A stretch of 64,000 bases of DNA from an uncultured delta proteobacterium (lineage in GTDB: Bacteria > Desulfobacterota > Binatia > UBA9968). The notes under the pieces are model-generated. The model did not search any database. It saw only the letters and a list, made by a program, of their open reading frames with translations, and was not told the origin of the DNA. Each line of letters opens with the position of its first letter. Position 1 is the first letter of the stretch. The position numbers and the translations under genes are program-made. The stretch is taken from assembly GCA_963745835.1 (NCBI GenBank), contig CAVUZH010000015.1, forward strand, positions 220,094 to 284,093, given 5' to 3'. Positions 17,391-50,017 of the stretch are shown here, one piece after another.

Positions 17391-20300
17391 TCAATTCATC
17401 GGCAGCGTAAACGTAAACGTTGAGCCTTTGCCAGGCTCGCTTTCGACCCAGATTCTGCCGCCGTGCATCTCGACGAACTTCTTCGTCAACGTCAGACCCA
17501 AGTCCCGTACCCTTCCCGCTTTCGTGCGTAATCGGATCCGACCTGGCGAAATTCTTCGAAAATCGCTTCGTGATGCTCCGGCGCGATGCCAATGCCGGTG
17601 TCGCTTATGGAGATTTTCACTGCGCCGTTGTCTAAGCCGGCGCGAACCTGGATCTTTCCTCCTTCCGGAGTGAACTTCACTGCATTCGAAATAAGTTGAC
17701 TAATACCTGTTTGATTTTGCGCTCATCGCCTCGGAAGTCGCCGAGCTGTTGGTCGATTAGCCGCTCGAGTCCTAACTCCGTGCCGGGAAGCGCGCTCCCT
17801 TATCAGAACCAGCGCGTTATCCAGCGCCGAAGGCAAATCGAACTTGGTCAGCTCCAACTCCATATGCCCAGCTTCTATTTTTGAAAGATCGAGAGATGTC
17901 GTTGATCAGCGAAAGCAGATGACGTCCTGAGGAAAGAATGTCATCGACGTACTCGTTCTGCTTGTCATTCAGTTCACCGAATAAGTGCTCCAGCAGCACT
18001 TCCGAGAAGCCGATGATTGCATTCAAAGGCGTGCGCAACTCATGCGATACATTCGCGAGAAATTCCGACTTATGCCGGTTGGCGGCTTCCAGTTCGCGGC
18101 CCTTGGCCTGGATCTCGCGAAACAGTTGCGCATTATGAATCGCTAAGGCGGATTGCGTCGCGAAAGTTTGCAGCAAGTTCACCACTTCAGGATCGAACTC
18201 GCCCGCTTGCCGCCGCCAGACTGTCAGGCCTCCTAGGATTTCTGCTCGCGTAATAGCGGCACCGTCAGAAGTGAGCGATAACCTAGCCGGTTGAGCAAAG
18301 GTCTGATCCTGGAAGTCGAACGCTCACGCTGATCAAAAGTATCCGAGATCTGCACCGGCGCGCGAGTAATCGCCGCTTGCCCCGCGGCGCCTTCGCCTGC
18401 TCTTATCCGTGTGGCCCTGAGCGCTTCAACCGCTTCGGCTTCCATGCGGTGGCTCGCCCGCAAGTTGAATTCTTGCGCGGCCTCATCAAATTCGTAAATC
18501 ACCCCGCAATCGGTCCCCGACAAATCGACGGCGCGCGCGACGATGGTCTCGAGCACAGTTTCGAGATCGAGGCTCGAGCTCACCGCCTGGCCGACCTCGC
18601 CCAGCGCTTTCAATTCTTCGACTGACTCCACCAGCTCGCGCGTCCGTTCTTGCAATTCTTGGAATAGCCGCACGTTCTCGATCGCGATAACGGCTTGATC
18701 AGCGAAAGTTTTCAGAAGGCAATCTGCTTATCCGTGAACGGTAACGAACTTCCATGCGCCGAATCACGATCGCCCCAATGGGGAGGCCTTCACGTAGCAG
18801 AGGTATAGCCAGGATCGTCCGAAAGCCGAGTCATCTTTCGAATGCACGTGACTCCGGGAACTCCGTGACCGCGTCCGCGGCAAGATCATGGACATGAACG
18901 GTTTGCCGGTCGATCACTGCCCGCCCAGCCACCGAGTCCGCGACTGATCAGATGACCTGCTACGCACGATGCGGTCACAGGGCATCGATCCGATATTTGC
19001 GGCCTCGTGTCGAAGGACATCACCATTGACGCGATAGATGAGAGCATCGTGGCATCACAGATCCGCGCAGCATTTTCCGCGACTACGATCCAGCACCGGC
19101 TGTATATCCGTCGGTGAGCTGGCAATGACACGAAGAATCTCTCTCGTCGCCGTCTGCTGCTCCAACGCTTCGGTAAGTTGCCGGTTCCGAGTATCGAGCT
19201 CATTAAACAGCCGGACGTTCTCGATCGCGATGACCGCCTGATCGGCAAAGGTCTTCAGCAGGGCGATTTGCGTTATCTGAGAAGGCCGAGCCTCCAGGCG
19301 ACGAATGAGGATATATCCCAGCGCAGTCCCTTCGCGGAGCAAAGGAGTCGCCAAAAGCGTCCTGATGCCGAAGCCTCGTGGGTCATCGCCCAAGTTTCTG
19401 GAAACTCATTTTGAACGTTCGGCGCGAAAGTATCCGTGAATATGGACGGTCTCCCGATCGAGAATGGCTCTGCCTCCAGCGACGCCTCGGAGGACCGGCC
19501 GGCCTTCTTCGATCTTGGACTCGGGATGGACCCATACTGCGCGGCTAACCTCACCCTGTACCGTCGACGCGCCAGATCTGGGCATCAGACAGCTTCGCAG
19601 AGGCGCGCCGCATTTTCAGCGACCGTGTCCAGTACCGGCTGAATGTCAGTTGGGGAGCTCGCGATAACTCGCAGAATCTCGCCGGTCGCAGTTTGCTGTT
19701 CCAATGCTTCCGTAAGATCGCGGTTGCGTTCCTGCAATTCTTTAAACAACCGCACATTCTCGATGGCAATTACAGCCTGATCAGCGAAGGTCGTGACTAG
19801 CTCGATCTGCTTATCAGTGAATGCCTCCACCTCACGCCTGCTGAGAAAAAATATACCGGCGAGCGTATTTTCCCTTAGCAAGGGCACGCCCAGCATTGTG
19901 CGAAAGCCGCCAAGCCTCTGATGTTCACGTAATTCATAGTCGGGGTCGGCTAGCGCGTCGAGAACATGAACTGGCCGGCGTCCGAGCTCGACTCTCCCGG
20001 CTAGAGAGGCCCGCCCTCGCGGAGCTGGGTTTTGTTGAACGAAATTTCTGAAGTCTGGCCCGACTCCAAAGTCTGCGGCCCACCTGTGAACTTCGCCTTC
20101 CAATCTGAAAATGATCCCTATGTCGGCTCGACAAAGTCTGGCAGCGTTTTCGACGAGCGTCTGAAGCACCGGTTGGAGATCAAACGTCGAGCGGCTGATC
20201 ACCTTGAGCACTTCACTCGTTGCGGTTTGCTGTTCCAGGGCTTCCGTGAGCTGGCGGTTACGATTATCTAATTCCTTAAACAACCGCACATTCTCGATAG

Positions 20301-49300: not shown

Positions 49301-50017
49301 TGAATGTCGGTCGGTGAGCTGGCGATGACACCCAAGATCTCACTCGTCGCCGTCTGTTGCTCTAACGATTCCTTGAGTTCCTGGAACAGCCGAACGTTCT
49401 CTATCGCGATGACCGCTTGGTCAGCGAAGGTTTCGAGCAGCTTGATCTCCGTTGGAGTGAAGGGGTGCACCTCGGTGCGGCGTGCGTACAGGGCCCCAAT
49501 AAACTCCCCCTGCTGACGAAGCGGAACACCCAAGTAAGTGCACCAAACGCCGCGAGAGCTAGGCCGCAAAGCGAAGAAATCGTTCTGCGCCCGGACATCG
49601 GGAACGTGGATGCGTGCCATGCTCCCGCATCCAACGCCAATGTGGCTCGTCGATACTGTTGTCGCGACCGACGGGTATGGACCCTAAATGAGCCCGCGGA
49701 ACCATCGCATTGCCTTCAACGAGCCGCAGCACGACGTCATCGATGCCGCAAACCCGCGCCGCGCTCTCGACGATGGCGTCGAGGACCGGCTGCACGTCTG
49801 TGGGCGAGCGACTGATGATGCCGAGCACCTCAGAGGTTGCTGCCTGATGCTCCAGCGCTTCGGCGAGCTGACGCTTACAATCCTGCGCCTCTTTGGCTGA
49901 CTCGGCGAGCTGGCGGCGCAGCTCCGCCATAGTTTGTGCATTTTCAACCGGGGAGTTTTTCACCGCATTTCGGGGCGGTTTTGCTCTGTTGCTCTTAGAG
50001 CCTTTTTTGCTCGCCAT
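43321..50017 (-). CDS. Poly-GAF histidine kinase HK4 (about 11 GAF + HisKA + HATPase); many indels
   Basis: MASKKGSK start; repeated GAF linkers; intact kinase core in ORF 43321-44298 ([26 protein letters not shown]). Confidence 0.85.

Follow-up and report, generated by a model that had tools for sequence, protein, structure and literature searches.

The DNA analysed here, a stretch of 64,000 nucleotides that we call the window, carries on its minus strand four histidine kinases with many GAF domains (HK1 to HK4), whose arrays hold 10, 12, 14 and 11 modules, respectively; two further arrays, HK5 and HK6, lie elsewhere in the genome. Units were found with nhmmer and a DNA profile made from HK3 units, whose minus-strand matches are tiled units of about 500-540 nt, and the broken genes were typed after frameshift-aware alignment with an X at every break. 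The following features were assigned in and around the arrays.

14774..15928, minus strand: gene encoding a receiver and a class III nucleotide cyclase, downstream of HK1 (Pfam)
16632..18185, minus strand: HK1 kinase remnants, namely part of a HisKA domain (17817-18185, profile 2-57 of 66) and part of a receiver (16632-17009; Pfam)
18201..23322, minus strand: HK1 array of 10 GAF modules, N A A B A B D A A T (nhmmer units, motifs, frameshift-aware alignment)
23598..24416, minus strand: HK2 kinase core in pieces, with HisKA at 23979-24416 (profile 2-49 of 66) and an HATPase_c fragment at 23598-23864 (profile 35-90 of 111; Pfam)
24329..30534, minus strand: HK2 array of 12 modules, N A C A B A B A B A A T (nhmmer units, motifs, frameshift-aware alignment)
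28936..29466, minus strand: HK2 module 3, type C (orthologue comparison with the related genome G005)
32862..34218, minus strand: NtrC-type response regulator downstream of HK3, in two frames, with the receiver at 33751-34218 and the sigma-54 AAA+ and HTH_8 domains at 32862-33767 (Pfam)
34446..34697, minus strand: receiver-domain fragment directly downstream of HK3 (Pfam, profile 36-110 of 111)
34982..43228, minus strand: HK3 ORF of 2748 aa with HisKA, a partial HATPase_c and, ahead of them, 14 GAF modules in the order N B A A C D A B A D A D E T (ORF, Pfam); the units of its GAF array span 35705-43135 (nhmmer)
36832..39840, minus strand: HK3 interior, the cores of modules 7-12, replaced in the G005 and G006 orthologues (orthologue comparison)
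43321..50017, minus strand: HK4, with leader (ATG at 50017), 11 modules and kinase core (nhmmer units, motifs, frameshift-aware alignment, Pfam)
43321-44298, minus strand: ORF with the intact HisKA and HATPase_c of HK4 (Pfam)
44050-49894, minus strand: HK4 array, B A B A B C B A B A T (nhmmer units, motifs)
44572..44766, minus strand: HK4 ghost module between module 10 and T, without a GAF core (nhmmer)
51405-51690, minus strand: lone GAF-unit piece (nhmmer)

In Pfam the HK3 ORF gives 14 GAF stretches (PF13185/PF01590, 662 bits against a cut-off of 28.6), a HisKA domain at residues 2525-2592 and a cut-down HATPase_c, and the H-box SHELRTPLN is present in its translation. HisKA was also found in HK4, and as fragments in HK1 and HK2. 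The HATPase_c of HK4 is complete (profile 2-109 of 111), and a frameshift near 35179 leaves that of HK3 partial (profile 2-49 of 111); in the HK3 orthologues of the related genomes G004 and G005 the domain is complete, with G1, F and G2 boxes. No HATPase_c was found by Pfam among the scanned ORFs of HK1. The receiver domains near the kinases (33751-34218, 34446-34697, 16632-17009 and 14774-15928) are their putative partners. In an AlphaFold2 model of two modules (pLDDT 94) a single 53-residue helix is predicted to span the joint, and we think it probable that the locus encodes four clustered, paralogous and soluble sensor histidine kinases in which continuous helices connect the GAF domains and a single HisKA/HATPase core follows them.

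Similar to the tandem GAF domains of PDE2A, PDE5, PDE6 and CyaB2, the modeled GAFs are joined by a long continuous helix, and a fold search with the two-module model returned tandem-GAF proteins as its best PDB matches (CyaB2, PDE2A and Cph2), with 1ykd, 3ibj, 1mc0 and 3lfv at the top (E 1e-17 to 1e-15). However, the PDE and CyaB2 proteins have two GAFs, whereas the kinases here have 10-14 and a histidine kinase output, and the likeness assessed here is one of fold, at 13-16% sequence identity. Cph2 (4bwi) and bacteriophytochromes are also among the fold matches, and phytochromes and cyanobacteriochromes likewise have GAF or GAF-PHY domains in series along a helical spine that leads to a kinase output; excerpts from the literature describe photoreceptors with three GAF domains, whereas the modules here are far more numerous and their types are not photoreceptor ones. 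The closest solved structures by sequence are the heme-binding GAFs of DevS/DosT (4ynr, 2vzw and 2w3d, E ~1e-5), a very weak match, and a PDB sequence search for a clue to the ligand gave these, a weak match to CyaB2 and nothing more. As in the shuffling and lineage-specific expansion of histidine kinases described in the passages available from PMC1630713, we observe lineage-expanded paralogous kinases with rearranged sensor domains, although in those passages different domain families are joined to kinases, and here it is 10-14 copies of one domain that are permuted. Soil metagenome bins commonly hold sensor kinases that repeat one input domain many times (hundreds of loci were found), and such kinases are essentially unstudied; a full-text literature search found no paper on arrays of at least 10 GAF domains or on their rearrangement.

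Module types and their neighbours

Motif typing agrees in 47/47 modules with the order strings that the initial annotation, made from the letters of the window, had read for HK1 to HK4 (NAABABDAAT, NACABABABAAT, NBAACDABADADET and BABABCBABAT). In a tree built from 74 modules collected genome-wide (SH-aLRT support) the modules group by type and not by gene, and the subtypes proposed there hold as clades for B (100), C (99), N (99), T (100) and D (94), whereas ‘A’ is a heterogeneous grade and no clade. The tree likewise recovers the distinctive variants that had been noticed at differing ranks in different kinases, with a support of 99 both for HK1_5/HK2_10, which are joined by HK5_14, and for HK3_7/HK4_4.

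The rule that B never follows B also withstood testing, with 0 BB adjacencies in the window against 3.0 expected (P=0.0065). Across 22 arrays of the genome and its relatives, among which kin are non-independent, there are 0 against 6.6 expected (P ~1e-4); the adjacency test was run without the distant arrays L038, L039, L043 and L058, whose types are ambiguous. Moreover, similarity between neighbouring modules (0.497) is lower than between random pairs (0.525; P=0.015), and internal similarity has a period of two modules, even lags being more alike than odd ones: lags 2, 4 and 6 have mean amino-acid identities of 0.550, 0.543 and 0.570, and lags 1, 3 and 5 of 0.497, 0.517 and 0.501 (N, T, HK5_4, HK5_5 and HK7_1 set aside). 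Selection or recombinational instability would keep near-identical modules, above all those of type B, apart, and such neighbour avoidance would have the A-x-A-x alternation as its outcome.

Probable exchange of GAF cores at the joints

Histories of adjoining DNA are discordant across the module junctions. When 71 of the 74 modules were compared with their nearest neighbours (HK5_4, HK5_5 and HK7_1 left out), both halves of the module had the same nearest relative in 20/71, whereas at 0/64 junctions was the match carried across into the neighbouring module. In the B modules, the core is much younger than what flanks it on either side, and this holds for all six arrays: the difference at 4-fold sites has a median of 0.43 (minimum 0.26) in B pairs, as against 0.66 in A pairs and 0.66 in the left and right flanks of the B pairs. 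This tract of low divergence occupies alignment columns 0-180 and has both of its ends at the linker motif, so that the young unit starts just after ENVRLF and stops just before [22 protein letters not shown]. Exact common tracts of at least 20 nt were found in 319/2701 module pairs, and 525/576 tracts of at least 17 nt lie within the final 60 or the opening 120 nt of the module; at the junctions, identical tracts of up to 49 nt are shared by modules of differing type. The longest entry in the list of exact tracts (HK5_4/HK5_5, 188 nt) comes from overlapping unit borders and was ignored.

We also compared synonymous sites in linkers and cores. Divergence at 4-fold sites is lower in the linkers (0.60-0.62 against 0.70 in the core), but the rise in similarity is modest; codon identity in the linker is above expectation at the T, A, I, R and L columns and at expectation at D, Q, A and V. 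With codon columns so patchy and a 4-fold effect so small, linker conservation was dropped as a weak sign of recurrent conversion. Outside type B, silent sites are saturated between sister modules (pS ~0.75, with dS 2.4 for HK3_7/HK4_4 and 3.2 for HK1_5/HK2_10), and we saw no sign of exchange among the window's four kinases in recent time.

Additional support comes from orthologues in related species. None of the outcomes that the initial annotation had listed as speaking against shuffling occurred: the module trees follow type, several junctions recur in independent assemblies, and the order differs between related species. HK3 ends in ...D A D E T in G000 and G004, and in ...B A D' E T in G005 and G006. 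In the G004 orthologue D A D E T is retained, each module at 94-99% amino-acid identity (94.6% nucleotide identity over 3.6 kb). In G005, HK3_6 is 96% and E and T are 98% identical, and the four interior modules reach 67-74% to any HK3 module, the cores of HK3 modules 7-12 giving way in the G005 and G006 orthologues to four modules that are not orthologous to them (A B A D'); G006 has the G005 arrangement at 82% nucleotide identity. The nucleotide identity steps that bound this cassette are sharp (0.55-0.65 to 0.97 and 0.93 to 0.47 in G005) and lie at ~36832-36892, 55-115 nt upstream of the module end, and at ~39790-39840, 105-155 nt into the module. HK2 differs as well, as in G005 its N (93%) and A (97%) modules are followed by an A-type core where the window has C, with an identity of at least 0.90 down to a step at ~29466, the end of the ENVRLF motif lying within ~40 nt of it, and of 0.3-0.7 thereafter; this difference is seen in one contig of a fragmented assembly (G005) that ends inside the module, and a chimeric join is possible there. 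A donor of the G005/G006 cassette was not found, the best matches being HK4_9 (81% amino-acid identity) and HK4_10 (72%), nor was an orthologue of HK4 found in the seven other genomes of the genus, where the best DNA match of 77% is at the level of a paralogue.

These observations suggest that the arrays probably evolved, and still differ between related species, through the copying, replacement and deletion of whole GAF cores at conserved joints. Exchange would occur by homologous recombination, presumably of the RecA type, inside the conserved DNA that encodes the inter-module helix, and the crossover region may comprise the end of one module (...[25 protein letters not shown]) together with the beginning of the following one (.[31 protein letters not shown]). 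Of the earlier proposal that recombination takes place at conserved junction DNA, the general part is supported by identity steps that fall in the junction zone, but a crossover strictly at the motif then named is unsupported. Because every joint would be the same helix, any core would be able to follow any other, and the modules would therefore be plug-compatible, with the signal perhaps passing along the helical spine of a dimer. If GAF cores are truly plug-compatible on one invariant helix, nature has already done the domain-swap experiment of receptor engineers, and the junction rules, crossover zones and neighbour avoidance could guide the design of chimeric sensors; such exchange would also show signalling repertoires diversifying between closely related species. 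The cassette events are evolutionary and on the scale of species, and an ongoing switching mechanism is not demonstrable here. Active or programmed shuffling is likewise unsupported, with most sister modules saturated at silent sites and the HK3 order kept in G004.

Broken reading frames and alternative histories

HK3 is the sole single open frame of the four kinases, itself frameshifted in its ATPase domain, and although it adjoins broken arrays it is almost clean. The broken frames of HK1, HK2 and HK4 had been overlooked in the earlier reading. By frameshift-aware alignment the arrays of HK1, HK2 and HK4 hold 28, 20 and 26 frame-disrupting events, and the five arrays HK1, HK2, HK4, HK5 and HK6 together hold 105 (62 insertions and 25 deletions of one base, 11 insertions of two bases and 7 in-frame stops; four events at most 4 nt from a unit start were not counted). 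At 1 per 186-310 nt, their density is far above what the genome's normal long-ORF content suggests, 76% of the genome lying in ORFs of at least 200 aa. Should these disruptions be real, the five arrays would be decaying pseudogenes and HK3 would just have lost its ATPase domain. The contrast with the rest of the genome and with the almost clean HK3 speaks against mere assembly error and favours such decay, as do the in-frame stops together with substitutions of conserved residues (e.g. V in the window and D in public contigs at 48204), the share of synonymous changes among the listed differences to public contigs (5/10 in HK4 and 12/19 in HK3) and the neighbouring regulator genes, which are also split. 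However, we consider decay possible but doubtful. Purifying selection has been strong over most of the history of the modules (pN 0.08-0.27 against pS 0.4-0.75), single extra bases predominate among the disruptions, and, among the matches listed, every disruption site covered by public contigs or orthologues has an intact version there. The extra base at 47937 (HK4) is absent from public contigs of 4/4 studies, those near 30179, 30291 and 30310 (HK2) from two runs and the G005 orthologue, and that at ~35179 (HK3) from one run, G004 and G005. Moreover, frame switches occur in 0 of 60 modules of fragmented assemblies (at least 160 contigs) and are many in few-contig assemblies of several lineages. 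Because public contigs and orthologues are without several of the extra bases, assembly error is more likely than decay, and the frameshifts in HK1, HK2, HK4 and HK3 are, judged from these sequences, most likely consensus errors of the assembly. A practical warning is that few-contig metagenome assemblies fill such genes with frame errors, and the genes would then be annotated as pseudogenes. A consensus that is poor in patches across the genome was considered as well: 39 merged regions have less than 25% cover by ORFs of at least 180 aa; in L035, the sole one looked into, the scanned ORFs are short, with one truncated DinB match, and Rfam gave no match in L035 or L036.

Duplication and loss alone could also have shaped the arrays, an ancestral long array being copied as whole genes and then altered by deletions and by tandem duplications of one or two modules, with neither transfer nor replacement of modules between genes. 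The sister pairs of HK1/HK2 (1-1, 4-5, 5-10 and 10-12) and of HK2/HK5 (6-7, 10-14 and 12-15) are collinear, the adjacent modules HK5_12/HK5_13 are duplicates with 91% nucleotide identity, and similarity recurs every two modules. Domain repeats commonly expand by multi-domain duplication and are rarer in bacteria, according to the parts available to us of Bjorklund et al. 2006 (PMC1553488), and the arrays resemble the repeats described there in belonging to one family and having a period of more than one domain, with a recent adjacent duplicate in HK5_12/13. Unlike those repeats, as far as those parts describe them, single cores here have also been moved or replaced between positions and genes. 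We regard a history of duplication and loss only as improbable, since sister pairs cross between HK3/HK4 (7-4 against C 5-6), HK1/HK3 and HK4/HK6, B cores are younger than both of their flanks in six arrays, which duplication of AB units cannot yield, and orthologues combine flanks of 96-98% identity with interiors of 67-74%.

It is very improbable that the module orders of the window are products of mis-assembly across repeats, which the initial annotation had itself raised as an objection. Contamination of the genome, a metagenome bin, is estimated at 9.3%, and the consensus is locally poor, but modules are only 60-85% identical and few exact tracts exceed 50 nt, public contigs span the HK3 junctions 4|5, 5|6, 10|11 and 13|14 and the HK4 junctions 3|4 and 5|6, and G004 independently has D A D E T, so that several junctions and the last five HK3 modules recur in independent assemblies.

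There is equally little to suggest that the broken arrays are real silent donors from which GAF cores are re-assorted into an expressed kinase by gene conversion at helix-coding joints; if true, this would amount to a population-level combinatorial rewiring of what a cytoplasmic kinase senses, under a grammar of no BB and A alternating with other types. Ongoing switching in the style of antigenic variation, with HK3 as the expressed acceptor, is very improbable: one intact array does stand beside broken ones, junction tracts between different types are identical over up to 49 nt and public contigs join distant junctions of the window, but the ‘donors’ are whole genes, each with a leader and a kinase core of its own (HK4 has both), whereas donors at antigenic-variation loci are partial and promoterless with long near-identical tracts, module identity is only 60-85%, G004 has the same HK3 order as the window and, because the protein is cytoplasmic, there is no obvious reason for it to vary. 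The joints in public contigs, which come from metagenome runs (e.g. 37348 to 45848, in two runs), were rejected as evidence of rearrangement, their sides being 20-30 nt at conserved junctions, which is typical of other organisms or repeats.

One public contig is without 2 letters at 34806, near the receiver fragment downstream of HK3. In the HK4 ghost module, the N-terminal helix is degraded and leads straight into a second linker motif; the linker remnant lies at 44572-44643 (nhmmer).

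The array cluster and its module types

The window's genome (G000) is a metagenome bin of 25 contigs and 7.28 Mb (completeness 97%, estimated contamination 9.3%), and its four multi-GAF histidine kinases, HK1-HK4, by domain content ordinary GAF-HisKA-HATPase kinases, are arranged head to tail on the minus strand from ~16.6 to 50.0 kb of the window. A DNA profile made from units of the single long ORF (HK3) tiled the arrays in units of ~500-540 nt, and a search of the whole genome with it found two further arrays (HK5, 15 units on contig C13; HK6, 11-12 units on contig C22) and a gene with a single module on contig C19.

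Features of the cluster
14774-15928: receiver-cyclase gene, downstream (Pfam)
18201-23322, minus: HK1 array, 10 units (DNA profile)
24329-30534, minus: HK2 array, 12 units (DNA profile)
32862-34218, minus: NtrC-type activator/response regulator downstream of HK3, in two frames (Pfam)
34446-34697: receiver fragment, downstream (Pfam)
35705-43135, minus: HK3 array, 14 units (DNA profile)
44050-49894, minus: HK4 array, 11 units (DNA profile)
51405-51690: lone GAF-like piece (DNA profile)

The HK3 ORF (34982-43228, 2748 aa) encodes 14 GAF domains, HisKA and an HATPase_c that ends at profile position 49 of 111 (Pfam), and HK4 has an N-terminal leader of its own (ATG at 50017) with HisKA and HATPase_c complete. 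The split NtrC-type regulator has its receiver at 33751-34218 and its sigma-54 AAA+ domain (matched from profile position 8), lid and HTH_8 at 32862-33767; between HK2 and HK3's regulators lies a Rieske/LigXa-type oxygenase gene (30801-32078, minus). The lone GAF-like piece adjoins an FAD/NAD-binding N-terminus (50971-51339, 122 aa) and a 294-aa ORF with no Pfam match, which overlap by 4 nt (region 50090-51789, minus) and may be another split gene. G+C is 0.49 at 16001-18000 and 0.53-0.60 elsewhere, and AT skew reaches -0.145 in this stretch, which takes in the receiver fragment and the broken kinase end of HK1.

We read the broken genes by a custom frameshift-aware protein-to-DNA alignment, placing an X at each break, and on these read-through proteins the motifs of the initial annotation reproduced its four order strings exactly (47/47 modules). 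When the genome's 74 modules were all placed in one maximum-likelihood tree, types B, C, N, T and D formed clades (SH-aLRT 100, 99, 99, 100 and 94); 'A', however, is a paraphyletic grade and not a subtype like the others. The distinctive variants noted at different ranks are also supported groups, namely module 5 of HK1 (HK1_5) and HK2_10 with HK5_14 (99), and HK3_7 with HK4_4 (99). The proposed rule that B never follows B held in the window (0 BB pairs against 3.0 expected from shuffling of interior modules, P=0.0065) and across 22 arrays of this genome and its relatives (0 against 6.6, P about 1e-4), with the adjacency P values overstated since the relatives are kin. AA pairs were also rarer than expected (25 versus 40.6), adjacent modules were less similar than random pairs (0.497 versus 0.525, P=0.015), and similarity was higher at even lags. 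That neighbouring domains in proteins tend to be dissimilar is a general rule, and these patterns would fit either selection that disfavours near-identical neighbours, because these misfold or because recombination deletes direct repeats, or functional A-x pairs. HK4 carries a ghost module between module 10 and T (44572-44766, minus; linker remnant at 44572-44643 by DNA profile), in which a degraded N-terminal helix is directly followed by another copy of the [14 protein letters not shown] motif with the GAF core absent, and which looks like the scar of a direct-repeat deletion. Of the 74 modules, only the adjacent HK5_12 and HK5_13 (G000:C13:149310-150337, minus; DNA 91% identical, dS 0.30) are clearly products of a recent tandem duplication.

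Evidence from paralogues and orthologues for exchange of modules

Five independent lines of evidence indicate that modules have been exchanged on an evolutionary scale. In the 74-module tree, the modules of one gene do not form a group. When every module was cut into two halves (71 modules, 64 junctions), both halves had the same nearest relative in 20/71 modules, and in 0/64 junctions was the relationship carried into the next module. Among the supported sister pairs, those of HK3 with HK4 (A* 7-4 versus C 5-6), HK1 with HK3 and HK4 with HK6 cross, and those of HK1 with HK2 and HK2 with HK5 keep a collinear order.

The median divergence at 4-fold degenerate sites is 0.43 for B pairs (minimum 0.26), compared with 0.66 for A pairs, 0.67 for A versus B, and 0.66 for the neighbours of B pairs, left and right alike. 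Low divergence between such highly diverged flanks indicates that single B cores, as units, were spread or homogenised across six arrays, which lie at three loci. Divergence is low from the codon that immediately follows ENVRLF to about column 180, and reaches background again both over [22 protein letters not shown] and in the final part of the module before; the mobile unit is therefore flanked on either side by the conserved linker. Exact tracts of at least 20 nt are common to 319 of 2701 module pairs, and 525 of 576 tracts of at least 17 nt, one of them a tract of 49 nt between a B and an A module, are located in a module's last 60 or first 120 nt, so that a substrate for homologous recombination exists at the joints.

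Two of the lines come from orthologues in related genomes. In G004, the HK3 orthologue (94.6% nt over 3.6 kb) ends in D A D E T, and these five modules match modules 10-14 of HK3 at 99, 99, 94, 97 and 98% in aa, respectively. The one in G005 reads D A B A D' E T, of which the leading D shares 96% identity with HK3_6 and the E and T share 98% with HK3_13 and HK3_14, whereas its four interior modules reach 67-74% at most to any HK3 module. Nucleotide identity steps down from >=0.93 to 0.47 at ~39790-39840 (105-155 nt into module 7) and up again, from 0.55-0.65 to 0.97, at ~36832-36892, with 55-115 nt of module 12 still to come. B-A-D'-E-T is common to G005 and G006, an independent assembly (82% nt), and G004 matches the window, so each HK3 arrangement is seen in two assemblies; no donor of the cassette in G005 and G006 was found. 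In the G005 orthologue of HK2 (N 93%, module 2 97%) an A-type core, 83% identical to HK2_2, stands in place of the window's C, a difference based on one contig that ends inside that module; identity stays at >=0.90 as far as ~29466, right where the linker motif ends, and is 0.3-0.7 past that point.

Exchange of modules is thus supported on the evolutionary scale, and in part so is the proposal that recombination at conserved linker-coding DNA permutes them, but we saw no sign of recent exchange among the window's four genes, and found no evidence of a programmed process. With the exception of B and HK5_12/13, the silent sites of sister modules are saturated (pS about 0.75), and dS is 2.4 for HK3_7/HK4_4 and 3.2 for HK1_5/HK2_10. 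Similarity at silent sites rises only modestly in the joints.

Origin of the frame disruptions

Of the four genes only HK3 has a single open frame through its array. The frameshift-aware alignment placed 28 frame-disrupting events within the array of HK1 (1 per 186 nt), 20 in HK2 (1 per 310 nt), 26 in HK4 (1 per 218 nt), 16 in HK5 (1 per 483 nt), 15 in HK6 (1 per 385 nt) and 0 in the HK3 modules. Single bases are extra in 62 of these events and missing in 25; a further 11 are two-base insertions and 7 are stops. The same frame changes were independently seen by a three-frame profile search, and in an alignment of 18 B modules single-base gaps are visible within otherwise conserved DNA. The HK3 frame shifts directly after VEVGDNG in the ATPase domain, a point after which the G004 and G005 orthologues stay in frame, with G1, F and G2 boxes and a normal end. 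Two regulator genes nearby are split as well, and so are the HK1 and HK2 kinase cores. Otherwise the genome is normal in long-ORF content (76% within ORFs of at least 200 aa).

We consider assembly error the probable cause. In public contigs compared over 30001-50000 (four runs of soil, root and rhizosphere samples, from as many studies), one letter at 47937 was left out in 4/4 runs, 47938 being an extra base in the alignment; single letters at 30179, 30291 and 30310 were left out in two runs (alignment sites 30181, 30309) and are also lacking in the G005 orthologue, 93-97% identical there; the letter at 35179, at the HK3 ATPase shift, was left out in one run; and a C was added at 46336 in one run, the alignment having a missing base at 46335. 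At least 5 of 29 disruption sites in this interval were matched by public-contig indels, with 12 of 26 indels listed and patchy cover. Moreover, 60 modules from seven loci in five fragmented bins (>=160 contigs each) contain no frame switches, while many occur in multi-GAF arrays of few-contig bins (L025 and L026 of G006, L039, L043, L058); contig numbers and names suggest that the former are short-read and the latter long-read assemblies. Automatic annotation would label these frame-switched arrays as pseudogenes.

Real, very recent decay is a possible though less likely cause, and assembly error does not readily account for the sparing of HK3. Module divergence (pN 0.08-0.27 versus pS 0.4-0.75) reflects long-standing purifying selection. 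Contigs identical to the window exist for HK3 (e.g. 862 and 699 nt with 0 differences), whereas every public piece listed for HK4 differs from it by 1.4-3%; among listed substitutions 12/19 in HK3 and 5/10 in HK4 are synonymous, and position 48204 encodes V in the window and a conserved D in public contigs.

Elsewhere in the genome, 39 merged regions of 4-14 kb each are less than 25% covered by ORFs of at least 180 aa (e.g. C3:1137001-1177000, C13:1-32000). Scanned ORFs in C3:1147001-1158000 are short, with one truncated DinB match, and Rfam gave no match there or in C14:448001-458000.

Fold model and distribution

An AlphaFold2 model of HK3 modules 4-5, made with an alignment of 63 natural two-module pieces, is confident (mean pLDDT 94) and has its two GAF folds connected by a single uninterrupted 53-residue helix (156-208) that holds the conserved linker motif. 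In the PDB its fold is closest to the tandem GAFs of CyaB2, PDE2A, PDE5/6 and Cph2, and by sequence the nearest solved GAFs are, weakly, the DevS/DosT domains. The kinases may form rod-shaped dimers, with GAF domains strung like beads along a helical spine that would pass conformational signals to the kinase, and the invariant joint would permit cores to be exchanged without breaking the protein.

As ideas, domain-repeat expansion and domain shuffling in kinases are already known (PMC1553488 and PMC1630713, respectively). Full-text literature searches found no description of arrays of at least 10 GAF domains, their module types, cassette exchange or neighbour rules. Giant related arrays are widespread in soil and sediment bins, with 599 of 600 candidate stretches confirmed, many through matches of 10-12 kb.
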